Shown: piece after piece, positions 24,496 to 40,367 of the stretch
Numbering within the stretch: position 1 is the first letter of the stretch
Layout: the number at the start of each line of letters is the position of its first letter
Origin: Patescibacteria group bacterium
GTDB lineage: Bacteria; Patescibacteriota; Minisyncoccia; 2-02-FULL-40-12
Direction: 5' to 3'
Assembly: GCA_038065855.1 (NCBI GenBank)
Contig: JBBTQD010000013.1
Span: 1 to 57,988, forward strand
Length of the DNA stretch: 57,988 nt
Position numbers and translations under genes: made by a program
Notes under the pieces: generated by a model
Told to the model about the DNA's origin: nothing
Database searches by the model: none
The model's input: the letters and a program-made list of their open reading frames with translations, nothing else

Positions 24496-24710
24496 TGCTT
24501 TCTTGTCTGTGGAAAAATTGGAAAAGATTCGGATTTTTTATCGGAAATATAATTTCCAATGTTTTTTTAACCATTTTTTATTTTACCATCTTTGCTTTAT
24601 TTGCCATTCCCTATAAGATAATTACCTACTATAAAAAATCTTCAGGTTCTAATTTTAAGTTGCCTCGAAAACAAATGCGCACGCTTGAGGATTTTCAAAA
24701 AGAGTTTTGA
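24495..24710 (+). CDS. 71-aa membrane protein, possibly an SxtJ-like fragment
   Basis: ATG at 24495 overlaps the previous TAA (TAATG), and the gene ends 1 nt before the carbamoyltransferase ATG. Contains one long hydrophobic hairpin (FGFFIGNIISNVFLTIFYFTIFALFAIPYKII). The listed ORF 24393..24710 extends the N-terminus across the previous gene. Confidence 0.45.
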   Translation: MLSCLWKNWKRFGFFIGNIISNVFLTIFYFTIFALFAIPYKIITYYKKSSGSNFKLPRKQMRTLEDFQKEF

Positions 24711-24711
24711 C

Positions 24712-26418
24712 ATGAAAATCCTTGGGCTTTCTTTTTTCTATCATGATGCCGCCGCTTGTCTCCTTATTGACGGAGTTCCTGCGGCTATGGCAGAAGAGGA
24801 ACGGTTTTCCAGAAAAAAACACGATTCCGGATTTCCTTCATTTGCAATTGATTTTGTTTTGAAAAAAGCAAATGTAAAAGCATGCGATGTTGATTGGGTG
24901 GTTTTCTATGAAAAACCGTTTATAAAATTTGAGCGGATTATTAAAACTGCGCTGAAAACTTTCCCTTGGGCTCCGGGAGTATTTCGCGAATCAATAAAGC
25001 ATTTATTTCTTAATAAACTTTGGATCAGGCATCTTATAGCCGTCGAGCTCGGCATCAGTCCCCAGAAAGTGCTTTTTTCAAACCATCATCTTTCCCATGC
25101 TGCATCCGCGTTTTTTTGTTCGCCTTGGGACAAGGCCGCAATTTTAACAGTTGATGGAGTAGGAGAATGGGCAACAGCGGCCTTGGCGCTTGGACAAGGA
25201 AATAAAATTGAGATTTTAAAGGAAATACATTTTCCGCACTCATTAGGTTTATTATATTCGGCTTTTACTGCATTTCTTGGATTTGAGGTAAATGAAGGGG
25301 AATACAAAGTTATGGGCATGGCTCCATACGGAACTCCGCGCTATACCGATAAAATAAAACAGTTAATCACACTTGCTGACGATTCTTCTTTCAAATTAAA
25401 CTTGGATTATTTTAATTTTCAGAGTTCGCTTTCGGAAACTTTTTCAAATAAAATGATTGAATTATTCGGGAAACCCCGGGATAAAAATTCTCATTTACAG
25501 GAATTTTATGCTGATATTGCCGCCTCAATTCAAGCGGTTTTAGAGGAGCATCTAGTTGCTTTAGCTAAGCACCTCTACAAATTAACCGGGCTAGATAAAT
25601 TATGTCTTGCCGGAGGAGTGGCGTTGAATTCTGTCACGAATTGGAAAATTAGGGAGCAAACTCCATTTAAGCAGATTTACATCCAACCCGCAGCCGGAGA
25701 TGGCGGCGGCTCTTTGGGAGCGGCTCTGGCCGTATATCGCATTGCGTTTAATAATGATAAGAGGTTTGTTATGGAGCATGCTTATTATGGGGCTTCGTAT
25801 TCTTCTCAAGAGATTGAGGCTGTTTTACAAGATAAAAATTTAAGGTTTGAATATATTAATTCGGAAGATAATCTTTTGGAAAAAGTATCTAGTTTTATAG
25901 TGGAAGGAAAAGTCATCGGATGGTTTAATGGGCCTTTTGAGTGGGGACCTCGCGCTCTTGGAGCCCGATCAATTCTTGCGGATCCCCGGCGGGAAGAGAT
26001 GAAAAATATTGTTAATACAAAAATAAAATTCCGAGAGCCGTATCGGCCTTTTGCTCCATCGGTATTAGTAGAATATGCTGAAGAATTTTTTGAATTGCCA
26101 AACGCCCAATCTCATTATCCTAGCCGCTTTATGCTCTATGTGGTGTCGGTTAAAAAAGATAAGCAAGAACTTGTCCCAGCCATTACTCATGTTGACGGGA
26201 CTAGCCGCCCTCAATTAGTATATCGGGAATATTCGCCCCGGTATTGGAAATTAATTGACCGATTCAGGCAGAAGACTTCTATCCCGATGCTCTTGAACAC
26301 TTCATTTAATCTTCGGGGAGAGCCGATTGTAAATACTCCTGAAAATGCTATAAATACGTTTTTAAGAAGCGGAATGGATATATTGGTTTTGGAGAATTTT
26401 ATCGTGTACAAAACATGA
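24712..26418 (+). CDS. Carbamoyltransferase (NodU/CmcH family)
   Basis: MKILGLSFFYHDAAACLLIDG...AMAEEERFSRKKHD...; HHLSHAASAFF; C-terminal GPRALGARSILADPR...KFREPYRPFAPSV...HVDGTSRPQ...LLNTSFN. Confidence 0.9.
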   Translation: MKILGLSFFYHDAAACLLIDGVPAAMAEEERFSRKKHDSGFPSFAIDFVLKKANVKACDVDWVVFYEKPFIKFERIIKTALKTFPWAPGVFRESIKHLFLNKLWIRHLIAVELGISPQKVLFSNHHLSHAASAFFCSPWDKAAILTVDGVGEWATAALALGQGNKIEILKEIHFPHSLGLLYSAFTAFLGFEVNEGEYKVMGMAPYGTPRYTDKIKQLITLADDSSFKLNLDYFNFQSSLSETFSNKMIELFGKPRDKNSHLQEFYADIAASIQAVLEEHLVALAKHLYKLTGLDKLCLAGGVALNSVTNWKIREQTPFKQIYIQPAAGDGGGSLGAALAVYRIAFNNDKRFVMEHAYYGASYSSQEIEAVLQDKNLRFEYINSEDNLLEKVSSFIVEGKVIGWFNGPFEWGPRALGARSILADPRREEMKNIVNTKIKFREPYRPFAPSVLVEYAEEFFELPNAQSHYPSRFMLYVVSVKKDKQELVPAITHVDGTSRPQLVYREYSPRYWKLIDRFRQKTSIPMLLNTSFNLRGEPIVNTPENAINTFLRSGMDILVLENFIVYKT

Positions 26419-27551
26419 TTCAAAAAATTACAATCACACTTGCCGCATTGATTAGGGGGGTCATTTTCGGCCCTGCTCGTTTGATACCCCAGAATCCGCG
26501 CCGGATTGTTGTGGCCCAAATGGGACGCTTAGGTGATATGGTATGTACGACGCCGATCTTTCGGGCGCTAAAAGACCGGTATCCCGAGTGCGAAGTGTTG
26601 GTGGTGGGGATGCCCGGCAATGCCGGGGTTTTAGCCGATCACCCAGATGTTAATCAGTATTATCCGTATTCCGGCAATGCATGGCAACTTGTCAGAATTT
26701 TGCGTACTATGAATGCCGATGCAGCTATTCTTTGCGGTCCTCACGGTTTAGTATTGGCCGTGATGCTTGCTGCCGGAATCCCGGCAGTTATTACTCCGGA
26801 AGTGGTCGGCGGACATAGTCCTTATGAAACCCGAATTTATAAATTCCTGCGGCGTTTTGCTGTAACCAAGCCGCATGACATGCTTAAATACGCCCCGCGG
26901 GAGTATCTAAATCTTTTAGAACCGTTTGGCATCCAGACTGATGATACGCGCAAGGAACTGGCGTATTCATCCTCGGCGCGGCAGTATGTTCAGACAAAGG
27001 CGATTGAAGCCGGCATAACTCTTGGGACAGACATTTGTATCGGTATCACTCCAACAGCCGGCAATAAAATAAAAGAGTGGCCGGCAGAAAGGTTTGGCAA
27101 GTTGGCTAGTATGATTGCCAAAGAGTATGGGACGAAAATAGTTGTGCTTGGCTCGCAGAATGATCACGCGCGAGTTAAAGAGATGCTAACAGCGGTTGAT
27201 TCGGGTGTTAAGATTTGGAATACTTGCGGCCAAATGGATTTAGATCAACTCAAGGCGCTGATTGATAATTTGGATTGTGTTATTGCCGTGGACACGGGGC
27301 CGATTTATATTGCTGAAGCATTTGGTGTCCCTACCATCGATATTGTGGGGCCGATGGATGAGAATGGCCAACCGCCGCGAGGTTCAAAACATATTATCGT
27401 GAAAGCAGATGTTCCCGGGTATCCATTTTTACGGATTATGAATGCCCGGATATATGATCCTATCGGCGCCCGGCAGGCAGTTGAGGCGATCACCCCGGAA
27501 ATGGTTCTGGAAAAATCTAGAGAGCTTTTAAATGATTTAAAAAATAAATGA
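26415..27551 (+). CDS. GT9 glycosyltransferase (ADP-heptose:acceptor heptosyltransferase-like)
   Basis: RRIVVAQMGRLGDMVCTTPIFRALKDRYPECEVLVV (the hallmark GT9 N-terminus); ...KEWPAERFGKLA...VVLGSQND...; DTGPIYIAEAFGVPTI. A sampled line is about 60% GC. Confidence 0.8.
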   Translation: MIQKITITLAALIRGVIFGPARLIPQNPRRIVVAQMGRLGDMVCTTPIFRALKDRYPECEVLVVGMPGNAGVLADHPDVNQYYPYSGNAWQLVRILRTMNADAAILCGPHGLVLAVMLAAGIPAVITPEVVGGHSPYETRIYKFLRRFAVTKPHDMLKYAPREYLNLLEPFGIQTDDTRKELAYSSSARQYVQTKAIEAGITLGTDICIGITPTAGNKIKEWPAERFGKLASMIAKEYGTKIVVLGSQNDHARVKEMLTAVDSGVKIWNTCGQMDLDQLKALIDNLDCVIAVDTGPIYIAEAFGVPTIDIVGPMDENGQPPRGSKHIIVKADVPGYPFLRIMNARIYDPIGARQAVEAITPEMVLEKSRELLNDLKNK

Positions 27552-28918
27552 AAAAAACCATATTTATATCGGCTTATAATCCTTTTATTGCCAGGAATAT
27601 TTTCAATACCGGTGTTTTAGGAGATTTGCGTAAACAAACTGATCTTCAGATCGTTTTATTGGTTCCAGCCGACAAAAAAGATTTTATGGAAAAATATTAT
27701 GGCGGCGATAATATCTTTGTAGAGGCAAGAGATTTTGAGGAATATATAAATAAAAATAAATTTTGGTATCGGCTGGCTTTTTTGCTTCAAAATACTCGGT
27801 ATGTCAAAGACCAGCGAGCCGAACGCCTTTGGAAGAATAAAAATCTCTTCAGATACTTGAATTATTGGTTAGTAAGTTTATCAGCTTTGATTTTAAGCAA
27901 TCTACCTTTAGCCAGAAAAATCTATCGGAATCTGGATTATCATTTTTCATCACAAAACGCCTTTAGTGAATTTTTTGAAAAGCATCAGCCTTTGCTTGTT
28001 TTTTCGACCGACATTTTTGGAGAGACTGATATATTTTTGATAAGAGAGGCTAGAAGCCGGGCTATTCCCATAATCGGGATGGTTCGTTCCTGGGATAACC
28101 CTACTACTAAGGGTATTTTGAGAGTTATACCAGAGAAAATTATCGTAAACAGTCCGGTAATGAAAGAAGAGCTTATAAAATTTCATGATTGCAAAGAAGA
28201 AAATATTTTAGTTGCTGGCTATCCGCAATTTGACAATTGGCTAAATGACCAGACTTTATCCAGAGATGATTTTTTTAAAAAAATAGGAGCTGATCCAGTA
28301 AAGCAGCTTATTTTGTTTGCTCCAGCCGGGAAGGTTCTTTCTGATACTGACTGGCAGCTTTGTCAGATATTGAAAGAAGCGCTTGACGACGGTTCATTGT
28401 CCGTCAATATCCAATTTTTAGTCCGTAACCATCCTCATCACCCGGCTGATCTTTCTATGTTTAAAAAAGATCCCCGGTTTATTATCGAAATTCCGGGCAT
28501 GAGAAATAAAGATTGGAGTGATAAAAAAGTTGAGTACGGGCCGGAAGAAAACGATCATTTGAAAAATTCTATTTACTACTCTGATATCATTATGTATGTC
28601 GCCACCACCTTGGGCTTGGATGCCACCGTTTTTAATAAGCCCCAGATCATGGTGAGCTTCGATGGCTGGGAATCAAAATCATATGTCCAAAGCGTCAGGC
28701 GCTATAACCGAGAAGACTGTTTGCAAAACTTAGTCAGGTGCGGAGGGACTCGAGTGGTTAAAAGCAAAAAAGAATGGATAAAATCAATCAACGAGTATCT
28801 TAGAGATCCGTCTCTTGATCAAGCCGGACGAGACAAAACAGTTACAGAACATTTATATAGAATAGACGGTAAGGCCGGCGAGAGAATAGCTAATTTCATA
28901 TCAGAATTTATTAAATGA
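27548..28918 (+). CDS. Hypothetical protein, possibly a GT-B-fold glycosyl- or glycerophospho-transferase
   Basis: 456 aa with two Rossmann-like halves (KKTIFISAYNPF...; LILFAPAGKV...RNHPHHP...). I recognise no diagnostic motif. Confidence 0.35.
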   Translation: MKKTIFISAYNPFIARNIFNTGVLGDLRKQTDLQIVLLVPADKKDFMEKYYGGDNIFVEARDFEEYINKNKFWYRLAFLLQNTRYVKDQRAERLWKNKNLFRYLNYWLVSLSALILSNLPLARKIYRNLDYHFSSQNAFSEFFEKHQPLLVFSTDIFGETDIFLIREARSRAIPIIGMVRSWDNPTTKGILRVIPEKIIVNSPVMKEELIKFHDCKEENILVAGYPQFDNWLNDQTLSRDDFFKKIGADPVKQLILFAPAGKVLSDTDWQLCQILKEALDDGSLSVNIQFLVRNHPHHPADLSMFKKDPRFIIEIPGMRNKDWSDKKVEYGPEENDHLKNSIYYSDIIMYVATTLGLDATVFNKPQIMVSFDGWESKSYVQSVRRYNREDCLQNLVRCGGTRVVKSKKEWIKSINEYLRDPSLDQAGRDKTVTEHLYRIDGKAGERIANFISEFIK

Positions 28919-30102
28919 TATTCAATGGAGTTAAGATTGAAAACATATTACAATCTTCAAGATTAAGCTTATTAGGGTTGGATGAGAAAGTGCCGTTTGA
29001 AGGTTGGGTTACTTGTCCTTGTTGTGAAAATAGCTTAAAGCCAGTTTGCCAACTAGTTAGCGGTTCCGGCAAAGAAATTAGGTTCGGCCTTTGCGAAAAT
29101 TGCGGATATATGGGCTATATGGATAGACCCACCAAGGATTGGATGAACGATTTTTATAGCCGCGAGTGGGATAAGAGTTTCCCAAAAACCATAGCCGAGA
29201 TTAAAAAAGGGACTATCTTGCCAGGCAAGGGTATTAAGCCATCCCGTTATTTAGCCGCTTCATTGATAGAAGAGATAAAACCAAATAAAGAAAAACCTGT
29301 CTGTGAGATAGGTAGTGGCTATGGCGAGGTTCTTAAATATTTTAGGGACTTCGGATTCAAAAATGTTATTGGTGTCGAAAACTCGAAACACCGAGCCGAA
29401 CTGGTGAGGCGGGTTTTGGGCTTTAATGTTTTGTATGGAGGATTTGAAGATAAAAAGATACAAAATGAGTTATCTAAACAAAAACCAATTGGATTAATTT
29501 TTAGCCACCATGTCCTTGAACATACTTATGATCCGGCCGAGGTTCTGAAAAAAATTTCATCTTTGCAAGAGGAAGGAGATTATTTAATTCTGGCTCTGCC
29601 TAATGTCGATGGAGAACATATAGATTACTCGTTACTTTATCTAGTTCATTTGCATTCGTTTACTAAAGAATCTTTAGAACTACTTTTAAATAAAAACGGC
29701 TACGAAATTATAGCCGACAATTCTCCTGATAATTCCAATATGATAATTGCCGCTCGGAAAACTTTAGATCCCCAGCCAAAATTTAAAGTTAAGCAGAATT
29801 ATTATGATTTAGTTTCAAAGCGCATAAGAAAGGGCTTAGCCATTGATGAAATGAAAAAAACGGTTTTGTATGAACTTTACTGGGAGCAAGGGATTGAAAG
29901 AGATATAGCCGAGATTACAGAAATCGGTTCAGACGGTGTTTTACAAAAAGTTAGCTGGTATTTCAAAAATAAGATTGCTTATATCCGCTCTAGATTTTTC
30001 AAACGATTCACTGCAGGATATACTATGCTTGTATTTCCTATTATCAGCAACTACAATTTTGAAATAAGATTTTCTGATAAAATTACTTTTTTGGTTAAAT
30101 GA
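28915..30102 (+). CDS. SAM-dependent methyltransferase with N-terminal Zn-ribbon
   Basis: CPCCENSL...CENCGYMGY (4-Cys ribbon); CEIGSGYGEVLKYF SAM motif; LIFSHHVLEHTYDP. Confidence 0.65.
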   Translation: MIFNGVKIENILQSSRLSLLGLDEKVPFEGWVTCPCCENSLKPVCQLVSGSGKEIRFGLCENCGYMGYMDRPTKDWMNDFYSREWDKSFPKTIAEIKKGTILPGKGIKPSRYLAASLIEEIKPNKEKPVCEIGSGYGEVLKYFRDFGFKNVIGVENSKHRAELVRRVLGFNVLYGGFEDKKIQNELSKQKPIGLIFSHHVLEHTYDPAEVLKKISSLQEEGDYLILALPNVDGEHIDYSLLYLVHLHSFTKESLELLLNKNGYEIIADNSPDNSNMIIAARKTLDPQPKFKVKQNYYDLVSKRIRKGLAIDEMKKTVLYELYWEQGIERDIAEITEIGSDGVLQKVSWYFKNKIAYIRSRFFKRFTAGYTMLVFPIISNYNFEIRFSDKITFLVK

Positions 30103-30845
30103 TTGAATTATTCGATACTAATTCAATAGAATCCGCTAAAAAAAATATTCGAGTTGCCGCCGGTGGTTTTCGATACGGTTTTATAGTAGATATTTTTCCA
30201 GAAAATATTTATCAAGAACTCGTGGCAACCTTTCCTGATGTTCGCGAGTTTAAATTGGTGGATAAAATGTCAGGTGGAGGGCACAAGCGTTTCTATATCG
30301 CGCCTCATTACGATGTTTCTAAGAATTTCGGCTGCTGGTGTCACTTACGTTTCTTCCCGGCGATATGGAAAAAAGTTTTACAAGAGTCGGCTTCGCCGGA
30401 ATTCATTTCTTTTTTATCTGATGTTATTGGTGTTAAGTTTAATTCATTAGCCACTTTTGGCCATACTTACGGCAATGAGGGTTGCGTTCAAGAACCTCAT
30501 ATTGACGGCGCGGTCCGGGAGGACAGGGGAGAATATCCTTCGACTCTGGCTACTTTGCTTTATTTCAACGAAAGACCGGACAACACCGGCGGGACCTGCG
30601 TTTACGCCACCGACCGGAAGACAGTTTTGTTCCAGGCGCCGAGCCTGCGAAACGGGATGTTATTCTTTGAACAGCATCCCGACGCCTGGCACGGATTTCC
30701 AGTAATGCCTCAAGGAGCTGAAAGGCGGTTGGTCAGTTTGGCTTACGGTTTGGAAGAGCTGCCGATTAATTTAAAAAGCTCTTTATTCCATCGTCTTACC
30801 TGTGTTCCAAGCTATAAAAGAGTAATCAAAAAATTAGTCAGATAA
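30099..30845 (+). CDS. 2OG-Fe(II) oxygenase-superfamily protein
   Basis: EPHIDG (HxD) ... DAWHGF (distal His) ... RRLVSLAY (2OG-binding Arg), with spacing typical of the double-stranded beta-helix fold. Confidence 0.55.
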   Translation: MIELFDTNSIESAKKNIRVAAGGFRYGFIVDIFPENIYQELVATFPDVREFKLVDKMSGGGHKRFYIAPHYDVSKNFGCWCHLRFFPAIWKKVLQESASPEFISFLSDVIGVKFNSLATFGHTYGNEGCVQEPHIDGAVREDRGEYPSTLATLLYFNERPDNTGGTCVYATDRKTVLFQAPSLRNGMLFFEQHPDAWHGFPVMPQGAERRLVSLAYGLEELPINLKSSLFHRLTCVPSYKRVIKKLVR

Positions 30846-30903
30846 CTAGAGTGGATAAGTATTTTGTTGTTTGCTTGATACTTTAATAAAATAGGAATAA
30901 AGC

Positions 30904-32391
30904 ATGCTTAAATTCATTTTACCTCTTTTGATCCTTGGTAGTCTTTTATTTGTCTCTCTTTCCTCTGCCCAAACCGTCCCGGATCTCGGAACTCTTGTAA
31001 AACAGCTCCAAGATCAGATTAAGCTTCTTAATCAGCAGATAGCCGACCTCCAATCTCGCCTTAAACAAACCGAGGAAGAAGTTAAAGTAGTCAAAGCCGA
31101 ATTAAAACTAACCAGGTCTCTAAGAAAGGGCGATTCTAACGATGAAGTAAAACAACTCCAGGAATTTCTTAAACAATTCCCAGATATATACCCAGAGGGC
31201 ATAGCAAGTGGTTTTTTCGGAGAACTAACCGAGAGAGCAGTAAAGAAATTCCAGGAAAAACACGGTATTGAGTCAATCGGTATTGTCGGCCCAAAGACCA
31301 TTCAGAAGTTAAGCGAGTTTTCAGTCAGCGCCCCACCGGGAATTCCGGCTATCCCCGCTATTCCAGCGATTTCGGCCTCACCTTCTTTGCCTTTTCAGCC
31401 GGCTTCAGCATCTCTGCCCACGGTTACTCCGATTACAACCCTAGCCATTCCTGCAACTACAGTAACACCAGCTATACCAGCGGTTTCTGGCGTATCTCCG
31501 GCAGTCCCAGCTCAACCGGCAATACCGGTAACTCCAGCTTCTGCATCAGTATCAAAAACCCCAACCCCAACTCCGACCCCTATCCCAAGTCCAACCCCAA
31601 TTCCGACGCCCACGCCAAGTTCTGCTAAACCATCAGTTGTAACTTTTTCAGGCAATGACGGCACTTGGTGTTATAAATCTGATTATTATCCCGAAGCGCC
31701 CTGGTCCCACAGAGTAACCACAAAGGGTTATTGTCAGGATAATACTGGCGCTTACTTTAATGATTCTTGTCAGAGTGATGGGAAGACTATTGATGAATAT
31801 TCCTGTTTTTATAGCTCTTATTATGATGCCGGAGTTATAAAGAGCACTACTAGATGCGAACGCGACGGCTTAGCTTGTTCAAGCGGTTTAGGCAGTAATG
31901 TCGGCAATGCCTGTTCTAACGGAGTCTGTGCAGCTGCGGCAACTCCGACCCCGACCCCAACCCCAACACCTACTCCTACTCCAACTCCGGCAGCAAGTTC
32001 TCAATATACTATGCAAGGTTCTGACGGTACCTGGTGCATTGACGGCGACTATGGCACTTCCACCCCTGATGGTTCATGGGGGCCGGTTTATATAAAGAGT
32101 GATTGTCAAGATCAATCAGGAACTCTTTATGATTATTGCGATGCCTCCGGCAATGTTCATGACTGGGGCTGCGTTGGCCTGTCGGACGGAACCGGCCGCA
32201 AAGATGTAAAATGTTCTGAATCCGGTTATCAGGTTAGCGGGACAAGTTACGGCAACCGTGGTTATACCTGTTCAGGCGGAGGATTGATAAAGACTAGCTT
32301 GTCTTCAACCCCCGCCACCGCCAATATCCTATACGCTCTGAAAGCAATTCTGCAGAATCTCAGTAACCTTCTCTTTCAGTTGAATCCCTAA
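30904..32391 (+). CDS. Secreted protein: signal peptide, coiled coil, PG_binding_1 domain, Pro/Thr linkers, two Cys-rich modules
   Basis: LILGSLLFVSLSSAQ signal; LRKGDSNDEVKQLQEFL...GFFGELTERAVKKFQEKHGI; PTPTPTP linkers (31558-31620, 31941-31990). The G.DGTWC...CQD..G...D.C pattern is duplicated. Confidence 0.7.
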   Translation: MLKFILPLLILGSLLFVSLSSAQTVPDLGTLVKQLQDQIKLLNQQIADLQSRLKQTEEEVKVVKAELKLTRSLRKGDSNDEVKQLQEFLKQFPDIYPEGIASGFFGELTERAVKKFQEKHGIESIGIVGPKTIQKLSEFSVSAPPGIPAIPAIPAISASPSLPFQPASASLPTVTPITTLAIPATTVTPAIPAVSGVSPAVPAQPAIPVTPASASVSKTPTPTPTPIPSPTPIPTPTPSSAKPSVVTFSGNDGTWCYKSDYYPEAPWSHRVTTKGYCQDNTGAYFNDSCQSDGKTIDEYSCFYSSYYDAGVIKSTTRCERDGLACSSGLGSNVGNACSNGVCAAAATPTPTPTPTPTPTPTPAASSQYTMQGSDGTWCIDGDYGTSTPDGSWGPVYIKSDCQDQSGTLYDYCDASGNVHDWGCVGLSDGTGRKDVKCSESGYQVSGTSYGNRGYTCSGGGLIKTSLSSTPATANILYALKAILQNLSNLLFQLNP

Positions 32392-32445
32392 TCCTAAAAA
32401 TCAAAGTCTTGACTTCTAAAGACTGCGGGTTTTTAATTGCCAAAT

Positions 32446-33021
32446 ATGGCAAAAATCTCTGATCAGATATTTAAGTCAATTCAGGCAAAAATTGATTTAT
32501 TAAAGGATTTTGACCAAATCATGAATATTGATCTAGCCGGCCGTCAGATTATAGATGTTTTGAATAAGGGCAATAAGATTTTAATTGCCGGAAACGGCGG
32601 ATCAGCCGCTGATGCCCAGCATTTTTCGGCGGAACTGGCCGGGAAATTCATATCTGTAAGAAAAGGCCTTCCGGCAGTTGCTTTGACTACTAATTCTTCA
32701 AATATAACTGCGATAGCCAATGACTTTGGCTATGATCAAGTTTTTGTCAGACAGCTTGAAGCTTTAGCAAAACCAGGCGATGTATTTTTTGGGATTTCAA
32801 CCAGCGGCAATTCTGAAAATTTAATAAAAGCTTTGGAATGGGGAAGAAATAATAATTTGATTAATATAGGATTACTTGGCAAAGGCGGCGGGAAAATGAA
32901 AGACTATTGCGATGTTTCAATAATCGTGCCTTCAGACAACACTCAAAACATCCAAGAATCACATATTATGATTATTCATATCCTTTGTCAGATGATTGAT
33001 GAAGCGTTTAGTGGAAAATAA
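32446..33021 (+). CDS. gmhA: D-sedoheptulose-7-phosphate isomerase (SIS domain)
   Basis: ILIAGNGGSAADAQHFSAELAGKF...LPAVALT...TAIANDFGYDQVF.RQL...GDVFFGISTSGNS.N is the classical GmhA signature. I prefer the ATG at 32446 over the listed TTG at 32437. Confidence 0.85.
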   Translation: MAKISDQIFKSIQAKIDLLKDFDQIMNIDLAGRQIIDVLNKGNKILIAGNGGSAADAQHFSAELAGKFISVRKGLPAVALTTNSSNITAIANDFGYDQVFVRQLEALAKPGDVFFGISTSGNSENLIKALEWGRNNNLINIGLLGKGGGKMKDYCDVSIIVPSDNTQNIQESHIMIIHILCQMIDEAFSGK

Positions 33022-33023
33022 AG

Positions 33024-33059
33024 AAGGCCTTGCAAATCGGGAGTGATTTGCAAGGCCTT
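33024..33059 (-). terminator. Perfect 15-bp hairpin between convergent gmhA and the radical SAM gene
   Basis: aaggccttgcaaatc-gggagt-gatttgcaaggcctt. On the minus strand it is followed by ttctttatttt. It lies 27 nt downstream of the rSAM stop. Confidence 0.6.
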
Positions 33060-33086
33060 GAGGATTCATCCCCACGCTGTCGGGGG

Positions 33087-34856
33087 CTACATGTCCAGAA
33101 TTCGGAGGGTTTGGCCGGAGTCGACGTACTCGCGGGCTTGCAGGAACACGTCATTAGGCATGTCGCTGAAGTTCAGCGGTTCGCCGTCCGGGCCGTGAAG
33201 GAGCTTGGTGGCGTCGTCCAGTTCCAGGCAGTAGTTGTAGAACGCTTCGTCGCAGACAGGTTCCCACTTGCCATCGGCCAGTTGGAAGTTCAGGCCAAAG
33301 ACTCGTGTGAGCTCGGCCCGCACCTTGGGGTGATTAATTAGCTCCGTCCCCGGATACCAGGTGAGAGTGAACATGTTTTTGTTCACTGCTTCCTCCGGTA
33401 TGCCGAAGGTTGCGTAGTAATCAATTTGCCACTTCATGAAAGCAACCGTTTGCTTAAGCCGTTCCAACGTTTCGCTGGGGTTGCCCATAATCCAGGTGCA
33501 GTTAGAGTGGATTCCCGCTTCCATGGTGTGCTTGATGCCGTAGACCATGGCTTTGGGAAACCAGTACCTGCGGCCGTCAATCGATACCGGAATCAGGCCG
33601 GCTCTGGTGGTAAATCCTCCTTTACCGAGTTCTTCAAGGGTGTCCAGGTGGGCGCTTTCAGGCCCGAAGCCGATGTAGCGACAGCCGGCCTCGGCCATGA
33701 GATTAACCCTAAGCGGATCCTCAAAGATATAGTCAGTAAAAAAGTTTCTTTCCTTGGACGACTGGGCTGGGTTAGGTTTCAAACCAGCGGCTTCGTCGAG
33801 ACGGGTGTGGGTGCCCCAAGGAATCTTAATGCCTTCCGCGACAATGATATCACGGAGCTCCTTGATCCTCTTGAATGTCACCGCAAAGTTGTCATCCGGC
33901 CAGCTTTTAAAGGCAATGCCGTACTTTGCGGTGTGTTCTTTGATCTCCTCGACCAGATGGCGGGCGGATCTTACATGCCATTTGCGTTCTCCTTGGGCCC
34001 CTCGGTAGCAGTACTTGCAGCCGTAGGGACAACCGCGGGAAGAAACGGAAGTGGTTTTCGGCGCGGTTACAAACGGAGCAGCCGAGCTGTTGTTGGCGCT
34101 CAACCCCCAGGCTTCTGTTTGGATGTACTTTTCGAGGACTTTTTCTCCGTCAACATCTTCTTTTAGAAGCTCGAGATCAGCCCAAGGGAATCTGTCGAGG
34201 TCATCAGGCCTGTCGCCTTCATACATCAGGCGGCCGGAGCCGTCTTTCAGGAGATACGGTTCTAGTTTGCCTGAATTGAGAGCGTGCCGTCTGCTGAATC
34301 GTCGTATGGTCGCCGCGTCGCAGCAGATTTTGACGATGATATCGTCGCCTTCGGAGTGGGCTACCGCATCAAGTTCGGGAATGTAGTTAAACAACCCCGT
34401 CTTCAATTCAGTGGCCAGTCCTCCGCCGGAAACGAGCATCGTATGAGGCACAAGCCGACGGACCATCTTTGCCACAGCTTTCTGCCATTTCAAGGTGGTG
34501 ATCATGCCAGAGAGACAAACAAGATCCGGCTCTCCAAATCTGACGAAGTGGCGTTTGATTTTGTCAAAAGCCTCTTCTTGGGTGAGATGGCGACCATTCA
34601 CTAACCCACGTTTTTGAGCGAGTTCGTCTTTTCTCCGGTAAGCATTGAGGTCGATGAGAGATGCATTGACCCCGTAGTTCCGGATTAGGTTAGTTGCCAT
34701 CAACAATGGTCCCTCGGGTGTGGTGTTTGGTACCGCTGTTTCCCGAAGCGGCATATTGATAAAAACAACGTTTAGCCCCTCAACATCTCTTGTTGCAATG
34801 CCCCTTATCACCTCTGAAGGATGGATATGGGGCTGGATTACGTTTAGATTCGTCAT
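33087..34856 (-). CDS. B12-binding-domain radical SAM enzyme (class B rSAM)
   Basis: N-terminal Rossmann-like cobalamin domain (VVFINMPLRE...PDLVCLSGMITTLKWQKAVAKMVRRLVPHTMLVSGGG). CX3CX2C cluster motif SSRGCPYGCKYCY. ATG at 34856 sits 6 nt after AAGGAGG (34863-34869, rc). The listed TTG at 34862 lies inside the SD spacer. Sampled GC is about 57%. Confidence 0.85.
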   Translation of the reverse strand: MTNLNVIQPHIHPSEVIRGIATRDVEGLNVVFINMPLRETAVPNTTPEGPLLMATNLIRNYGVNASLIDLNAYRRKDELAQKRGLVNGRHLTQEEAFDKIKRHFVRFGEPDLVCLSGMITTLKWQKAVAKMVRRLVPHTMLVSGGGLATELKTGLFNYIPELDAVAHSEGDDIIVKICCDAATIRRFSRRHALNSGKLEPYLLKDGSGRLMYEGDRPDDLDRFPWADLELLKEDVDGEKVLEKYIQTEAWGLSANNSSAAPFVTAPKTTSVSSRGCPYGCKYCYRGAQGERKWHVRSARHLVEEIKEHTAKYGIAFKSWPDDNFAVTFKRIKELRDIIVAEGIKIPWGTHTRLDEAAGLKPNPAQSSKERNFFTDYIFEDPLRVNLMAEAGCRYIGFGPESAHLDTLEELGKGGFTTRAGLIPVSIDGRRYWFPKAMVYGIKHTMEAGIHSNCTWIMGNPSETLERLKQTVAFMKWQIDYYATFGIPEEAVNKNMFTLTWYPGTELINHPKVRAELTRVFGLNFQLADGKWEPVCDEAFYNYCLELDDATKLLHGPDGEPLNFSDMPNDVFLQAREYVDSGQTLRILDM

Positions 34857-34965
34857 TTCCAACCTCCTTGGTAAGGTGCGAAAAGTTCAGAATTATATTA
34901 TCTATTATTTTTTCAAAAATTACAACAATTGACGCGGACTCAAATTATTGTTATTTAAATCTAAT

Positions 34966-35529
34966 ATGACTAAAAAACTTTTAGAGAAATTCAGAAAAGT
35001 AAAAATTCTTGCCCTTGATAATGACGGTGTGCTTACGCCTTTGTATCTTGATACAGGTGTGATTATGACCAAAGAAGCGGCCAGTCAGCATACTGGCCGG
35101 GATTTCGTTTATGTTTTTGAATCAGCCAGATACTCTCATAAAGACGGCCAGGGCATTGATTTAGTGCGTAAGGAAAATGTTGGAGTATCAGTTTTTATTT
35201 TAACGACCCAAAGAAGCGGTTACGTTCAAGCTCGGGCTTGGAAGCTCGGTGTGCCTTTAGTTCAGAATAAAGATAAGGTTGTTGGATTAAAAGAATACTT
35301 AAAAGAAAATTATCCTAAAGTGAGTATGAAAGAAATTTGTTTTGTTGGCGATAGTACCGGCGATATTGAGATAATGAAACTAGTTGGCGTTTCAGCCTGC
35401 GTGGCTGACGGTGCCAAAGAAGCAAAAAAAGTCGCTGATTATGTTACCAAGGCAAAAGGCGGCGATGGAGCAGTAAGAGAAGTCTGTGATTTAATTATTG
35501 AAGCTAAAACTGGCTCCAAAAGAAAATAA
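34966..35529 (+). CDS. KdsC-type HAD-IIIA sugar-acid phosphate phosphatase, divergent copy (#1)
   Basis: ILALDNDGVLT (DxD motif I); VGDSTGDIE (motif IV); C-terminal ADYVTKAKGGDGAVREVCDLII. Carries a ~30-aa insertion after motif I relative to copies #2 and #3. Confidence 0.65.
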   Translation: MTKKLLEKFRKVKILALDNDGVLTPLYLDTGVIMTKEAASQHTGRDFVYVFESARYSHKDGQGIDLVRKENVGVSVFILTTQRSGYVQARAWKLGVPLVQNKDKVVGLKEYLKENYPKVSMKEICFVGDSTGDIEIMKLVGVSACVADGAKEAKKVADYVTKAKGGDGAVREVCDLIIEAKTGSKRK

Positions 35530-35536
35530 TTAGTTA

Positions 35537-36421
35537 ATGGAAAATATTAAACTGTTTCTGCTTTTTATGATTCCCGGCACTTTTTTCGCCGGGCTTTTAG
35601 ACGTAGTAATTCGGTACGCTTTAAGAGAAGGGAAAATAAATGAGAGGCTGCTCCTTGCTTTTAATTTTTTGTTTTCCGGAATTTTGATTTCTTTTCTTTT
35701 TATTTTTTTCTTTGATTTTCCAGAAATCAAACAAGGTTTTTGGCTGGCTTTATTTATGACTTCTGTTATAGGGATGTTCGGCCACTGGACTTACTACAAG
35801 GCCTTTAGTCAGGATGATGCTTCGGTAATTTCTCCAACCAGATTATTGACTCCGCCGTTTGTTTTGATAACCGGTTTTTTTATTTTGGGTGAGAAAGCAT
35901 CTTTTTGGGGTATGGTCGGTGTTTTAACTACAATAGCCGGGCTTTGGTTTTTAGTTAATCCTGAAGGTAAAAAACTTAGCTTGGCTGGAGTTTTTGAGCA
36001 TAAAGGCATACTATTAGGGATACTAGGTGCTTTGTTTTTCGCATTCTCGTTTCCTTTTGATAAAAAAGCAGTAGTAACATCATCGGCTTTGTTTTTCTCG
36101 GCTGTTTATTTGGTTGTTGTTGGATTTGCTAGTCTGATCATTTACGCCGTTCAGAAAAAAGATTTTTCTATTTATAGAAATTTAAAAGCGAACTGGCGGA
36201 TTATTTTTTTGATGGTTGCGGTGAATATCGCCGGTTTTTTCCTGACTGCCCAGGCTCTCAATTATACATTGGCCGCTTATGCCGCCAGCGTTAAACGGCT
36301 TTGGTCATTTTGGGCGGTTGTGTTAAGCGGCCAACTTTTGGGCGAGAAAGATATAGGCCGAAGGTTAGCTGCTACCAGTATAATGCTTAGCGGCATAGTG
36401 ATAACGACTTTGTTTGGATGA
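35537..36421 (+). CDS. EamA/DMT-family transporter
   Basis: 294 aa with about 10 TM helices in two similar halves; the ends match typical EamA repeats (...ISPTRLLTPPFVLITGFFILGEK...; ...ASVKRLWSFWAVVLSGQLLGEK...). Confidence 0.65.
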   Translation: MENIKLFLLFMIPGTFFAGLLDVVIRYALREGKINERLLLAFNFLFSGILISFLFIFFFDFPEIKQGFWLALFMTSVIGMFGHWTYYKAFSQDDASVISPTRLLTPPFVLITGFFILGEKASFWGMVGVLTTIAGLWFLVNPEGKKLSLAGVFEHKGILLGILGALFFAFSFPFDKKAVVTSSALFFSAVYLVVVGFASLIIYAVQKKDFSIYRNLKANWRIIFLMVAVNIAGFFLTAQALNYTLAAYAASVKRLWSFWAVVLSGQLLGEKDIGRRLAATSIMLSGIVITTLFG

Positions 36422-36423
36422 AT

Positions 36424-36948
36424 TTATTTAATTTTTCCTTCTTTGGCTAAAACAACTAAATCGCAGATTTCTCTTACTGCATGATCCCCGCCTTTTCTTT
36501 TAGTTATATAATCAGCTACTTTTTTACAATTCGGATTAGCGTCAGCAACAGTAAAAGACAGTCCAGCATATTGCATACATTCTAAATCGTTCCAGTCATC
36601 ACCCATAAAAGCCGCCTCCGAGGGGTTTATCTTTTTTTCTTTAAGGATTTTTTTAAAGAGAGTTAATTTATCGTTTATCCCGTGAGCATATTCAGTTTTA
36701 AGTTTTTTACTTCGCGTGGCCACTATTTTGTTTGGTTCTTTTGAAATAACTATTAATTTAAGGCCAAGACGTTGCAATTCATTAATACCCAGTCCGTCTT
36801 TGCGACTACAAACAACATGTTCAATTCCATCTTCGCTCAATATAACCTTTCCATCAGTAAAGATGCCATCAAAATCAAAACCGATGAGTTTAAGTTTTTT
36901 AAGTTTTAGTAAAAGTTTTTTAGGAATTTTTATATAGTTGTTTGACAT
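36424..36948 (-). CDS. KdsC-type HAD-IIIA phosphatase (#2)
   Basis: LIGFDFDGIFTDG...CSRKDGLGI...ISKEPN...MGDDWNDLECMQYAGLSFTVADA...ADYITKRKGGDHAVREICDLV. Confidence 0.8.
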   Translation of the reverse strand: MSNNYIKIPKKLLLKLKKLKLIGFDFDGIFTDGKVILSEDGIEHVVCSRKDGLGINELQRLGLKLIVISKEPNKIVATRSKKLKTEYAHGINDKLTLFKKILKEKKINPSEAAFMGDDWNDLECMQYAGLSFTVADANPNCKKVADYITKRKGGDHAVREICDLVVLAKEGKIK

Positions 36949-36970
36949 ATTATTGATTTAATTATATAAG
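36942..36970 (+). promoter_or_regulatory. Sigma70-like promoter candidate for the P-loop gene
   Basis: TTGACA (36942-36947), 17-nt spacer, TATAAG (36965-36970). About 48 nt upstream of the ATG at 37019, with AAGGAGG at 37007-37013. Confidence 0.45.
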
Positions 36971-37018
36971 TTATTAGTTCGAAAAAGTCAATAGTAATTT
37001 ACCAAAAAGGAGGATGAG

Positions 37019-37753
37019 ATGGATAGTAATCAAAGAATCTTGGTTGGGGTTTTTTCCGGATTGGTCTTCAGCGGTAAGTCGTTCTTTCGGACTTGGGTGA
37101 TGAGTCTGCCCGATTACAAGGACGCCGTGTTTGTAGCCATGGATGACATCCGTCAGCGCTTCTGGCCGAAGAGAAGCGACACTCACATCGTTAAGACCGA
37201 GCATGTTTTCAAGAACGAGGCGACTCGGTTTGAAGTGAAGACCAAGTTGATAATAGAGAGGCCGCTAGCTGTGTTTCTGGAAATGGTGATGCTGACTCGT
37301 GAGGCTCATCAGCGGCCATTTGTGGAGATGATTAAGAGCGTGAATGAGTACCTTCAGACCATCGGAAGAGAAGAGGCCCAGAGAGACGGCAAGCCAGCTT
37401 CCGAATCACCAGTTGAAGTGGATTTCAGGTGCATCTACTTTTACTGTGATTTAGAGACGGTAAAACGGCGAATCGGTTATCGCCAGCGGGAGTTGGAAAC
37501 CGTCGGTAATATATTTAATGCCAGCGTGTTCGATTTCAGCGGTTTCCTGCGCGGAGCCCAACAGATTGAGATTCCGCCGGCTGGCTACATCCCTTTGTAC
37601 CTTGATACTTCAGACGAGTCGGAAGCGGCACTGACTCGCCAGCGCGAAGAGATTCTTTCTTTTTTGAGAGGCGAGATGCCGATCAGTGAAGAAGAACTTC
37701 AGAGACGCGCTGTCGATGCAGTCAGTTTTCTTGACGAAGCTCGTCGTGCCTAA
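37019..37753 (+). CDS. P-loop NTPase / putative small-molecule kinase
   Basis: Walker A GLVFSGKS at the N-terminus (ILVGVFSGLVFSGKS), 244 aa, acidic C-terminal tail. Sampled GC is about 53%. Strong SD. Confidence 0.5.
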   Translation: MDSNQRILVGVFSGLVFSGKSFFRTWVMSLPDYKDAVFVAMDDIRQRFWPKRSDTHIVKTEHVFKNEATRFEVKTKLIIERPLAVFLEMVMLTREAHQRPFVEMIKSVNEYLQTIGREEAQRDGKPASESPVEVDFRCIYFYCDLETVKRRIGYRQRELETVGNIFNASVFDFSGFLRGAQQIEIPPAGYIPLYLDTSDESEAALTRQREEILSFLRGEMPISEEELQRRAVDAVSFLDEARRA

Positions 37754-37780
37754 AATGGTGAATAGGTCGGTAAGAGGCCA

Positions 37781-37816
37781 AAGGCGGAATCTGAAATTTG
37801 ATTCCGCCTTTTTAAT
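37781..37816 (+). terminator. Rho-independent terminator
   Basis: aaggcggaatc-tgaaattt-gattccgcctt followed by tttaatt. Confidence 0.7.
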
Positions 37817-37846
37817 TATGTTAGCTTATATAAATTAAGTAAATTT

Positions 37847-38668
37847 ATGAAGAAGATTCACTTTTCTTACTTTAATATTAAACTTAAGGCTTCAAAGGTT
37901 AAATTAAGTTACTTTGATCGTCCTGGCAAAAAAGGGACGATTGTTTTCATCCACGGTTTAGGCTGTTCAAAAGAAGATTTTATCAATGCCGTAAAAGTTA
38001 AAGGACTTAAAGATTATGAAATTTTTGTTTTTGATTGGCCGGGAGCGGGCAGATCTTCTTACCCTTCTAAAAAGAGTTTAGGGATTAATGATTTAGTTGA
38101 AGTTATTGATTATGTTGTTAAGAAATTTTCATTTAAAAAGTTTATTTTGGTTGGCCATAGTCTTGGTGGAGTAGTCGGTCTTTTATACAGCGTGAAGCAC
38201 CCCCGAAAAGTAGCTGGTTTCATAAATATAGAAGGTAGTTTAGTTTCTCGGAATGCCCGATGGTCTCGAAAGATTAGAAAAATGGGTTTTAGAATCTTTA
38301 AAAATGGGCCGTTTCAGGAATTGAAATCTGCTTTAAAAAAATCTAAAAATTTTGGTTTCAGAAAATACGCCAAAACTTTAGATTCGGTTTTAATAAAATC
38401 TTACTTTGATTTTAGTGTTTCTCACGCCAAAATTTGTAAAAATGAATATCTTCTCAAAAAGTTTTTGGAACTAAAATTACCCAAAATTTTTATTCATGGC
38501 GCAGAAAATAAAAACTGGGTGCCAGTTATAAAGAAATTAAAAAAGAGCGGATGTTCAGTTGCAGGCATATCTAAAAGTCATCACTTTTCATTTATTGATA
38601 ATCCGTCTCTATTTTATAAAGTATTGGCTAAATTTGCTGATGAAGTTTTTGCCAACCAAAAATCTTGA
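37847..38668 (+). CDS. Alpha/beta-fold hydrolase
   Basis: IVFIHGLGCSKEDF (oxyanion region); LVGHSLGG nucleophile elbow; C-terminal SHHFSFIDNP (His). Sampled GC is about 30%. Confidence 0.75.
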   Translation: MKKIHFSYFNIKLKASKVKLSYFDRPGKKGTIVFIHGLGCSKEDFINAVKVKGLKDYEIFVFDWPGAGRSSYPSKKSLGINDLVEVIDYVVKKFSFKKFILVGHSLGGVVGLLYSVKHPRKVAGFINIEGSLVSRNARWSRKIRKMGFRIFKNGPFQELKSALKKSKNFGFRKYAKTLDSVLIKSYFDFSVSHAKICKNEYLLKKFLELKLPKIFIHGAENKNWVPVIKKLKKSGCSVAGISKSHHFSFIDNPSLFYKVLAKFADEVFANQKS

Positions 38669-38693
38669 CAAAAACATTTTATTCTTTTATATT
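38665..38693 (+). promoter_or_regulatory. Sigma70-like promoter candidate for the methyltransferase-cupin pair
   Basis: TTGACA (38665-38670, overlapping the hydrolase stop codon), 17-nt spacer, TATATT (38688-38693). About 70 nt upstream of the ATG at 38766. Confidence 0.5.
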
Positions 38694-38765
38694 CTTTCAA
38701 GCTTCGAGGGATTAAAACCAGCCTCGTTTTAAAAATTAAAGATGAGTTCTAAAGGAAGGTGAAAA

Positions 38766-39845
38766 ATGAACAGCGGTCCGATTCACGCCTATGATCCCAA
38801 AGGCGATCTTTTTGAAGGTTTGTTCCCGGTCATTTATTCTGTTGAAGGCTGGGTTCGCGGTTCGTATCTGCGTCAATCTCAGAATTCAGCACTTCTAGCC
38901 GAAATGGCAAGCGGCGGTCTGAGAGGCAAGGATATTTTAGACATCGGCTGTGGCTACGGTACCACCGCCTTTGCTATTTCTAGCTTCTTCCCGGCCTCAA
39001 TAACGGCTATTGATAGCTCCAAGGCAATGATCGAAATGATGAGGTTTTTGCTTTTGGAGAATGGCGATATTGAGGTATGGTTGATTCAGAGAGGAGCTAA
39101 AGAGGTTTTGGGCCGGCGGTTTGAGCGTACGGCCGAGTACCTGAAGTTTTTCCGGCGATGCTTTCGTCAGAACAGCTTCTGGGCTGAATCCGCTAATCTC
39201 AAAGTAGTCAACTCACTCTTGATGGATTTTTCTTCAAATGTTCCTTTTGATGTGGCTATCGCCAATAATGTTCTTCATTGGCCGGTCAACCAACTCAAGA
39301 AGAAGCACGAAGAAGGGGGACGCAAGCCTGAAACCGACGACTGTATCGTGGAGGCGTTGTTGAAAGTCAAGACTCTTTTGAAGCCTGGCGGAACTCTAGT
39401 GATGATGGAGCCCCGCCAGGTTACCGCCTTAGATACAGATTCTTCTCGAGCAAAAAACTTCGACAAGTTCGGTTCCAACAGCAATCCTGTGTTCGTTAAG
39501 CTGAACCTAACTCTGAATAGGATTCTTATGGAGAGGTACTCTATCGAAAGAGGTGCTCCAAAGGACATCGAGATGTTTAGGACCAGCCGGATGCGGGATT
39601 TGGGCAATAAAGCCGGTTTTGAACTTGAGAGGATGGTTGTGATTGAAGAACCGTCCTTCATCAGGTCGGTTGATTTTTATCCGACCATCATTCCAATCAA
39701 TCTGGCGACTGTGGGTCTGCCATTGACAGAAAAAGTCAAAATCATTCGTGAAGCCGAGGCTGAACTGAATGACACTTTGACTGAAGAAGAAAAGAATCTG
39801 CCAATGCAATCCCAAGCCTTCTACTTCGTTTTCCGGACGGTTTAG
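38766..39845 (+). CDS. Class I SAM-dependent methyltransferase with large insertions
   Basis: ILDIGCGYGTTAFAI (motif I), ITAIDSSKAMIE, FDVAIANNVLHW, LKPGGTLVMMEP. 359 aa. Confidence 0.7.
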   Translation: MNSGPIHAYDPKGDLFEGLFPVIYSVEGWVRGSYLRQSQNSALLAEMASGGLRGKDILDIGCGYGTTAFAISSFFPASITAIDSSKAMIEMMRFLLLENGDIEVWLIQRGAKEVLGRRFERTAEYLKFFRRCFRQNSFWAESANLKVVNSLLMDFSSNVPFDVAIANNVLHWPVNQLKKKHEEGGRKPETDDCIVEALLKVKTLLKPGGTLVMMEPRQVTALDTDSSRAKNFDKFGSNSNPVFVKLNLTLNRILMERYSIERGAPKDIEMFRTSRMRDLGNKAGFELERMVVIEEPSFIRSVDFYPTIIPINLATVGLPLTEKVKIIREAEAELNDTLTEEEKNLPMQSQAFYFVFRTV

Positions 39846-39860
39846 CCCGAAGGAGAAAAA

Positions 39861-40322: not shown

Positions 40323-40333
40323 TCTTAATTGCG

Positions 40334-40366: not shown

Positions 40367-40367
40367 T

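Follow-up and report, generated by a model that had tools for sequence, protein, structure and literature searches.

Genes of the window

The window, by which we mean the whole 57,988-nt stretch of DNA analysed here, is an entire contig (C13) of a Patescibacteria/Parcubacteria metagenome-assembled genome (MAG). The assembly consists of 32 contigs with a total length of 514,712 bp, and its completeness and contamination are estimated at 97.8% and 0.07%. Almost all 58 kb of the window are a surface-glycan island that encodes transferases of the GT1, GT2, GT4, and GT-C types along with flippases, epimerases, methyltransferases, and secreted peptidoglycan-binding proteins, and the relatives of its proteins come nearly all from groundwater Patescibacteria/Parcubacteria MAGs. 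We focus on two genes in this island, one for a family 9 glycosyltransferase (GT9) and one for the sedoheptulose-7-phosphate isomerase GmhA, and on a neighbouring cassette built around a NeuB-like synthase. A sequence-only reading of the window had treated GT9 and GmhA as a single heptose signature from which the rest of the nucleotide-heptose pathway is missing. Loci of relatives carry L numbers below, and genomes carry G numbers.

The GT9 gene (26415–27551, forward strand, 378 amino acids) was confirmed by its match to PF01075, Glyco_transf_9 (E 1.5e-24, 87.1 bits against a cut-off of 22), and a search with hidden Markov models (HMMs) of the six-frame translation of all contigs recovers the same gene. 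Against the NCBIfam models for heptosyltransferases III, II, and I, the protein scores 99, 92, and 62 bits, all far under the equivalog cut-offs of 170, 135, and 185. Its nearest solved structures are WaaF (1PSW) and 3TOV. Residues D13, K192, E222, D261-T-G, and M242 of Escherichia coli WaaC align with D41, K220, D250, D293-T294-G295, and M274 of the window protein; we take these to include the catalytic Asp and the donor-binding Lys, acidic residue, and Asp-Thr-Gly of WaaC.

The GmhA gene (32446–33021, forward strand) starts with ATG and has an alternative TTG upstream at 32437. It was likewise confirmed. Its score against TIGR00441 is 205.3 bits, 4 bits short of the equivalog cut-off of 209.45. 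Its best solved relative is the Campylobacter jejuni GmhA (1TK9, 186 bits), and the top PDB matches are all GmhA (140–186 bits). H59, E63, Q170, and H178, presumably the zinc and active-site positions of GmhA structures, are invariant in an alignment of 24 sequences that includes the E. coli enzyme, and the 1TK9 alignment is concordant. We considered and rejected the possibility that the protein is a DiaA-like replication factor, as DiaA scores 124–130 bits compared with 186–205 for GmhA and the gene lies in a glycan context. Judged by these comparisons, it appears to be a genuine and functional isomerase. Its substrate could be made by the cell, since a split transketolase and Rpe are encoded in the genome.

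Several genes stand around these two. A NodU/CmcH-type carbamoyltransferase gene (24685–26418, forward; Carbam_trans_N E 1e-80, Carbam_trans_C E 2e-67) overlaps the start of GT9, and the end of GT9 overlaps by 4 bp a gene for a Glyphos_transf or BFO_1060-like enzyme (27548–28918, forward; PF04464 E 1.4e-9, NF046086 51 bits), a candidate CMP-ulosonate transferase. The latter is followed by a methyltransferase gene (28915–30102, forward) and a 2-oxoglutarate (2OG)-Fe(II) oxygenase-like gene (30099–30845, forward), both assigned by Pfam and both conserved followers, the same order being repeated in L083, L084, and L103. The Glyphos_transf gene accompanies the NeuB-like cassette in L077, L081, L083, L085, L100, L103, and L115. 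Downstream of GmhA is a B12-binding radical SAM enzyme (33087–34862, reverse; Pfam), a conserved neighbour of GmhA and of the cassette that adjoins GmhA in L077, L081, and L100. Then come a first KdsC-like phosphatase (34948–35529, forward; TIGR01670 82 bits, NF007019 93 bits), an EamA/DMT-family transporter within the cassette (35537–36421, forward; PF00892 99 bits), a second KdsC-like phosphatase (36424–36948, reverse; TIGR01670 131 bits, above the cut-off of 107), and a predicted P-loop small-molecule kinase (37019–37753, forward).

The remaining part of the cassette holds a CTP_transf_3 enzyme resembling PseF and KdsB, which we annotate as a CMP-ulosonate synthetase (40368–41105, reverse; PF02348 90 bits, TIGR03584 175 bits), a third KdsC-like phosphatase (41146–41694, forward; TIGR01670 109 bits, cut-off exceeded), a xylose-isomerase-like TIM barrel (41694–42506, forward; Pfam), and a short-chain dehydrogenase/reductase (SDR) (42499–43320, forward; Pfam). 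It also holds the NeuB-like synthase, a phosphoenolpyruvate (PEP)-condensing enzyme that is without a SAF domain (43395–44474, forward; PF03102 246 bits, TIGR03569 253 bits against a cut-off of 400). The order TIM barrel, SDR, synthase is repeated in L103. Base composition is uneven along the island: the GT9 gene, at 47.8% G+C, is flanked by genes with 40% and 37%. GmhA likewise has only 37%, and values of 50–53% are reached by the genes for the radical SAM enzyme, the P-loop protein, and the cupin.

GT9 and GmhA are inherited separately

Across relatives, GT9 and GmhA do not travel together. Our co-occurrence sample was 41 genomes from the same order as the source genome, and here a strong GmhA was found in 10, GT9 in 13, and both in 3, where chance alone would give 3.2 (odds ratio 0.9, p = 1.0). 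Of 50 genomes with a homologue of the window GT9, only 7 have a GmhA-like gene, and in just 4 of these is the match strong. A degenerate DNA motif for GmhA, which picks up all known GmhA loci including that of E. coli, was scanned over the fetched loci, and no instance of it turned up in 61 other GT9 loci, whose flanks extended to at most 10 kb. L083 is the closest of the relatives with long flanks; it has a GT9 that is 86% identical and the same gene order as the window (carbamoyltransferase, GT9, Glyphos_transf, methyltransferase, a 248-amino-acid protein, radical SAM, KdsC, CMP-transferase, SDR, NeuB), and GmhA is missing from the region seen. Neither gene was found in G051, a genome of the same genus. 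The two genes thus belong to one large, variable surface-glycan island, in which each is inherited on its own; they do not form a functional pair, and the idea of a joint heptose signature does not hold.

GmhA and the NeuB-like synthase

A different partner for GmhA emerges from the relatives. The clade of the window GmhA comprises proteins that are 79–83% identical, and two of its loci, L077 and L081 (79–80% identical), have the order Glyphos_transf, GmhA, (radical SAM), KdsC, (CTP_transf_3), SDR, NeuB, with no GT9 within 10 kb. In G059, G065, and G088, which belong to another family of the same order, GmhA lies immediately upstream of the NeuB-like gene, with KdsC-like, radical SAM, EamA, and Glyphos_transf genes alongside. 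The synthases of these three genomes are 49–54% identical to that of the window (G065 54%, G088 49%) and have its unusual insert in common. Their GmhAs form a separate long-branch clade that is only 40% identical to the window GmhA, and for this reason we conclude that the linkage of GmhA and synthase arose at least twice.

A metagenome scan with the window synthase returned 80 loci, which add two further arrangements. L103 has the order (CTP_transf_3), TIM barrel, SDR, NeuB, GmhA, methyltransferase, and L115 has Glyphos_transf, methyltransferase, EamA, CTP_transf_3, a His_Phos_1 phosphatase, GmhA, NeuB. An isomerase, a PEP-condensing synthase, a phosphatase, and a cytidylyltransferase all lie within 32446–44474 of the window, and the same set is contiguous in L115, L103, and L077/L081. 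Taken together, immediate adjacency of GmhA and synthase is seen in at least three independent lineages and in two GmhA clades, where a rough expectation is well under one event. In the L115 operon, GmhA is the sole enzyme making a phosphorylated aldose.

A gene of L115 deserves separate mention. The His_Phos_1 gene (8601–9218) occupies the usual KdsC slot, between the CMP-transferase and the GmhA–NeuB pair, and looks like a non-orthologous displacement of KdsC. Replacement of KdsC by a non-homologous phosphatase argues that the pathway needs a phosphatase, and hence that the aldose is phosphorylated.

We suggest that GmhA is an accessory feeder of the CMP-ulosonate cassette; this is its best-supported role, although we would put its chance somewhat below even. 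In the route that we propose, GmhA would form the entry step by converting sedoheptulose-7-phosphate, from transketolase, to D-glycero-D-manno-heptose-7-phosphate, which the SAF-less NeuB-like synthase would condense with PEP. A KdsC-like phosphatase would then strip the terminal phosphate, the CTP_transf_3 enzyme would form the CMP-sugar, and the Glyphos_transf/BFO_1060-like enzyme would transfer the activated sugar. Such a route would yield a 3-deoxy-2-ulosonic acid of ten carbons, which may be tailored further by the SDR, TIM-barrel, and radical SAM enzymes and by methyltransferases. Of three suggestions made by the sequence-only reading for the fate of the heptose, the use of heptose-7-phosphate by the NeuB-like synthase fits the comparative data best, with GmhA in or adjoining orthologous cassettes in several lineages.

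Several observations weigh against this role. GmhA is found within 10 kb of the synthase in only 4 of the 38 metagenome loci that have at least 3 kb on both sides, and because both genes belong to glycan islands, such proximity is weak and near the level of chance. Within the same genus, G051 has the synthase and no GmhA; the cassette of L083 is also without GmhA in the region seen, and, counted by genome, GmhA and NeuB are not significantly associated (odds ratio 2.8, p = 0.28). Moreover, the window GmhA clade is sister to GmhAs in ordinary heptose-nucleotide modules, which combine an HddA-like kinase (143 bits) and an HldC-like transferase with Gmd, Fcl-like enzymes, and a NUDIX hydrolase. 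No ten-carbon ulosonic acid is described in the literature that we searched. It is therefore immediate adjacency, in about three independent events, that carries the case for the link.

Two further observations concern genes beside GmhA. In L078, L082, L094, L096, and L097, which are glycan loci of several Patescibacteria, the genes for GmhA, an HddA-like kinase, and Gmd-like enzymes are accompanied by a split transketolase-like pair (E1_dh and Transket_pyr), a hint that the heptose may undergo two-carbon branching or chain extension. In L095, a gene for a 1084-amino-acid Gmd-like dehydratase (5771–9025) adjoins GmhA and has faint intein and LAGLIDADG matches; it may encode an intein-bearing sugar dehydratase.

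The GT9 clade

The search for homologues of the window GT9 gave 58 loci. Patescibacteria account for nearly all of them, and identities are 27–46%, with one at 80%. In a maximum-likelihood tree, Patescibacteria GT9s form one clade (support 99/96) on a long branch, far from E. coli WaaC, WaaF, WaaQ, and WaaU. Within it, the window GT9 and those of L083 and L084 fall in a subclade (100/95) shared with Azambacteria and Giovannonibacteria proteins.

Heptose kinases are associated with this clade in other genomes. A gene for an HldA-type kinase adjoins the GT9 orthologue in L012/L085, L018, L049, L056, L061, and L066. In Azambacteria, the 3′ end of GT9 is overlapped by a gene whose rfaE_dom_I score of 336 bits (cut-off 345) identifies it as a heptose-7-phosphate kinase; in Giovannonibacteria and other genomes, similar kinase genes lie 0–3.5 kb from GT9. 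The PfkB motif DxxGAGDT is present within 3.5 kb of GT9 in 6 of the 58 loci, with both subclades represented, and G035 has a contiguous gmhA-hldA-hldC operon. Synthesis of ADP-heptose has been reported in freshwater Paceibacteria (PMC9166423).

The most constant neighbour of GT9 is the carbamoyltransferase gene, which adjoins it in L083, L084, and L085 and is also near GmhA in L071, L078, L094, and L096. In Pseudomonas, heptose II is carbamoylated by WapO/PA5005 (PMC8005017), and the pairing in the window recalls this arrangement of the Pseudomonas core. From the conserved WaaC catalytic residues, the kinase-adjacent orthologues in several lineages, and the usual pairing with a carbamoyltransferase, we conclude that GT9 is probably a heptosyltransferase-type enzyme of a non-lipopolysaccharide (non-LPS) glycan. 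The clade as a whole was probably ancestrally heptosyltransferase, and in the window the enzyme would most likely add a heptose-type sugar beside the ulosonic acid on a non-LPS acceptor.

This account is incomplete, in that most genomes with this GT9 clade, including the source genome, have no recognisable supply of heptose nucleotides. A heptosyltransferase without such a supply of its donor counts against our interpretation. As a side observation, a MAG labelled Candidatus Nanoarchaeia (L021, 10001–11107) carries a GT9 that is 41% identical to that of the window and is nested deep in the Patescibacteria clade; either the sequence is mis-binned or the gene has passed between bacteria and archaea of ultra-small size.

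Pathways absent from the genome

The sequence-only reading found no heptose kinase, GmhB, nucleotidyltransferase, or HldD in the window. This was borne out, and the gap extends to the whole genome: HMM and phmmer searches of the 32 contigs revealed no recognisable HldE/HldA, HddA, GmhB, HldC/HddC, or HldD. In the six-frame HMM searches, there was no NTP_transferase (PF00483), no CTP_transf_like protein (PF01467), no GmhB, and no GHMP kinase anywhere in the genome, and the model for bifunctional HldE had no match genome-wide. Queries of the genome by phmmer with E. coli HldD, HldE, GmhB, LpxA/B/C/D/K, KdsA, KdsD, and WaaA returned nothing at E < 0.1. The suspicion that the organism is without LPS is thereby supported, and no canonical heptose operon with lipid A and Kdo (3-deoxy-D-manno-octulosonic acid) genes was found elsewhere in the assembly. 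Because the genome is without Lpx, KdsA, and WaaA genes, GT9 is not an LPS-core enzyme.

Two candidates for the missing steps were considered and set aside. The single PfkB protein of the genome is ribokinase-like and lies next to rpe on contig C8. Its rfaE_dom_I score is only 45 bits, and it shares 22% identity with an HldA of the candidate phyla radiation (CPR); we do not regard it as the heptose kinase. The HAD phosphatases of the window, which had been proposed as heptose-pathway enzymes, are all three of the KdsC/YrbI type and not of the GmhB type: each matches KdsC best and the genome has no match to the GmhB profile, though a GmhB-like activity may still be within their reach.

The searches also revealed a wider gap in sugar activation. 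GlmS, GlmU, ManA, ManC, Pgi, and the RmlA-like enzyme of Patescibacteria had no match in the genome, and the sole sugar nucleotidyltransferase recognised in it is the CTP_transf_3 enzyme of the cassette. MurA (C11:4612–5895) and a ManB-like phosphomutase (contig C1; 194 bits to CpsG) are encoded. MurA and over a dozen glycosyltransferases are thus kept in a genome without recognisable GlmS, GlmU, ManA, Pgi, or any enzyme of the GalU/RmlA/ManC type.

In two relatives that have both GT9 and GmhA, open reading frames of 510–515 amino acids (G065:C3:258236–259714 and G059:C1:158000–159538) encode a cytidylyl/adenylyltransferase-like domain followed by a PfkB domain, the reverse of the order in HldE.

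Comparison with known systems

The genes of the window resemble parts of several known systems. With LPS-core heptosyltransferases, the window shares the GT9 Pfam family, the WaaC catalytic Asp and donor-site Lys, Asp/Glu, and Asp-Thr-Gly, an orthologous GmhA, and, in other Patescibacteria, a gene with an HldE kinase domain beside GT9. The acceptor of WaaC is itself an ulosonic acid, Kdo. However, the window protein falls under all WaaC, WaaF, and WaaQ equivalog cut-offs and belongs to a separate long-branch clade, and with no genes for lipid A, Kdo, WaaA, HldE, GmhB, or HldD in the genome, a Kdo2-lipid A acceptor is impossible.

The proposed route runs parallel to the Kdo pathway (KdsD, KdsA, KdsC, KdsB) in its sequence of ketose-phosphate isomerase, PEP condensation, phosphatase, and CMP activation, with phosphatases of the KdsC type and a cytidylyltransferase of the KdsB Pfam family. 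It differs in that the isomerase is of the GmhA type and the synthase of the NeuB type, there is no KdsA or KdsD homologue, and a sugar of ten carbons is predicted where Kdo has eight.

The routes to N-acetylneuraminic acid-9-phosphate in animals (NANS) and to 9-phosphate of Kdn (2-keto-3-deoxy-nononic acid) in Bacteroides thetaiotaomicron also combine a NeuB-family synthase, a KdsC-type phosphatase, and a CMP-synthetase, and this combination implies a phosphorylated aldose substrate. In contrast to those systems, the window synthase has no SAF domain and carries an insert, its recurrent partner is an isomerase forming heptose-7-phosphate and not a source of mannose or N-acetylmannosamine, and radical SAM, TIM-barrel, and several methyltransferase genes are part of the cassette.

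Finally, the GDP-D-glycero-D-manno-heptose and 6-deoxyheptose pathways of Campylobacter capsules and Aneurinibacillus S-layer glycans (GmhA, HddA, GmhB, and HddC, with Gmd-like enzymes) are examples of heptose use outside LPS that start at GmhA, and in other Patescibacteria GmhA has an HddA-like kinase, an HldC-like transferase, and Gmd/Fcl-like enzymes as its partners. Unlike these, the source genome is without GHMP kinase, NTP_transferase, and GmhB.

Alternative explanations

Our interpretation as a whole, a Kdo-like ten-carbon route fed by heptose-7-phosphate together with a separate heptosyltransferase-type GT9 acting on a non-LPS acceptor, is tentative, with the balance of probability somewhat against it; what the synthase uses as substrate, the ten carbons of its product, and the donor and acceptor of GT9 are all deduced from sequence comparison. 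Four other explanations were weighed.

The first is that a cryptic nucleotide-heptose pathway feeds GT9: heptose-7-phosphate from GmhA would be converted to heptose-1-phosphate by the P-loop kinase and one of the two extra KdsC-like phosphatases, or in a single bypass step by the ManB-like mutase, and an unrecognised nucleotidyltransferase would then form the donor. The P-loop protein has only 27 homologues (38–83% identical), and all source names given for these are CPR. It has no match in the PDB by sequence; its AlphaFold model (pLDDT 89.8) has as its best Foldseek matches adenosine 5′-phosphosulfate (APS) kinase, gluconate kinase, and the 6-phosphofructo-2-kinase domain (E 2e-6), and because of this resemblance in fold, the protein is predicted to be a small-molecule kinase, as a cryptic pathway would require. 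In a Wildermuthbacteria locus (L097, 8001–9857), its gene forms a group with those for a cupin and a HAD phosphatase, and epimerase genes and a GHMP kinase gene are adjacent, which would also fit. Further in favour are the three KdsC-like phosphatases of the window, compared with one in the compact cassettes of L077, L081, and L083, the presence of the ManB-like mutase, and the link of the GT9 clade to heptose kinases in other genomes. On the other hand, searches with PF00483, PF01467, GlmU, ManC, and the CPR RmlA-like enzyme gave no nucleotidyltransferase candidate in the genome, the P-loop gene is missing from other GmhA-bearing cassettes (L077, L081, L103, L115, L098, and L100), and GT9 and GmhA are not co-inherited. 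We consider such a pathway unlikely.

A second possibility is that GT9 and about a dozen other glycosyltransferases of the island use nucleotide sugars of a host or partner, including ADP-heptose from a Gram-negative host, with almost none made by the organism itself, and that GmhA is unrelated to GT9. This would affect the donor of GT9 only and is compatible with GmhA feeding the NeuB-like synthase. A genome in which sugar-1-phosphate nucleotidyltransferases, GlmS, GlmU, ManA, ManC, and Pgi are not recognised, while MurA and many GT1, GT2, GT4, GT9, and GT-C genes are retained, is what would be expected from such a supply. Most genomes with the GT9 clade have neither GmhA nor HldA, and an EamA/DMT-family transporter lies in the cassette here as well as in L100 and L115. 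However, divergent nucleotidyltransferases may escape profile searches, and we know of no established process by which bacteria take up nucleotide sugars. In our view, this explanation is quite unlikely for the present genome.

Thirdly, an ordinary ADP- or GDP-heptose pathway could lie in DNA that is missing from the assembly or was lost in binning. The genome is a fragmented MAG, related Patescibacteria have the gmhA-hldA-hldC operon (G035) or HddA-type modules, and a member of the same family, G055, has a strong HldA. In addition, GT9 and GmhA proteins identical to those of the window are present on a 147.8-kb contig of a large collection. The kinase of relatives, however, lies about 3.5 kb or less from GT9, and here 26 kb upstream and 30 kb downstream are assembled without one; L083 and L084 are likewise without a kinase, and the pattern of GmhA without kinase or of GT9 without GmhA is found in many relatives that are rated 95–100% complete (GHMP kinases were not searched in relatives). 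Given a fully assembled GT9 neighbourhood, partial patterns that recur in relatives, and the high completeness estimate of the genome, an artefact is improbable.

Equally improbable is that GmhA feeds the synthase with a six-carbon substrate, converting fructose-6-phosphate to mannose-6-phosphate in place of a phosphomannose isomerase and leading to a nine-carbon, Kdn-type acid: the genome has no ManA or ManC-type isomerase, most NeuB-like cassettes have no GmhA nearby, as expected for a common hexose phosphate substrate, and the Kdn route of Bacteroides uses mannose-6-phosphate with a KdsC-type phosphatase, but the window GmhA is close to that of C. jejuni and keeps all conserved active-site positions, and we know of no GmhA that isomerises fructose-6-phosphate.

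Significance

We return to the interpretation in which GmhA feeds the NeuB-like synthase and GT9 is a separate heptosyltransferase-type enzyme. GmhA probably marks a new variant of Kdo/Kdn-type pathways. If GmhA does feed the synthase, this would be a biosynthetic route to a ten-carbon acidic sugar, and neither such a sugar nor such a pathway is found in the literature that we searched; the enzyme family behind the proposed route is widespread in uncultured bacteria. A bolder extension, possible but doubtful, is that a CMP-activated 3-deoxy-2-ulosonic acid of ten carbons is made from D-glycero-D-manno-heptose-7-phosphate and PEP by Patescibacteria and by other lineages that have the SAF-less NeuB clade, and that in this organism the clade-specific GT9 and the carbamoyltransferase build a heptose–ulosonate unit. 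This unit would be the counterpart of the heptose–Kdo inner core in a cell that has no outer membrane, and its acceptor would be something other than LPS.

Heptosyltransferase-type enzymes, which are usually taken as markers of LPS, form a large clade in Patescibacteria that are without LPS, and the presence of GT9 is for that reason unfit for inferring an outer membrane. In addition, a genome with no recognisable sugar-1-phosphate nucleotidyltransferase, GlmU included, and yet with MurA and a 58-kb glycan island, sharpens the question of where such cells obtain their activated sugars, whether from a host or by means of enzymes that are not recognised.

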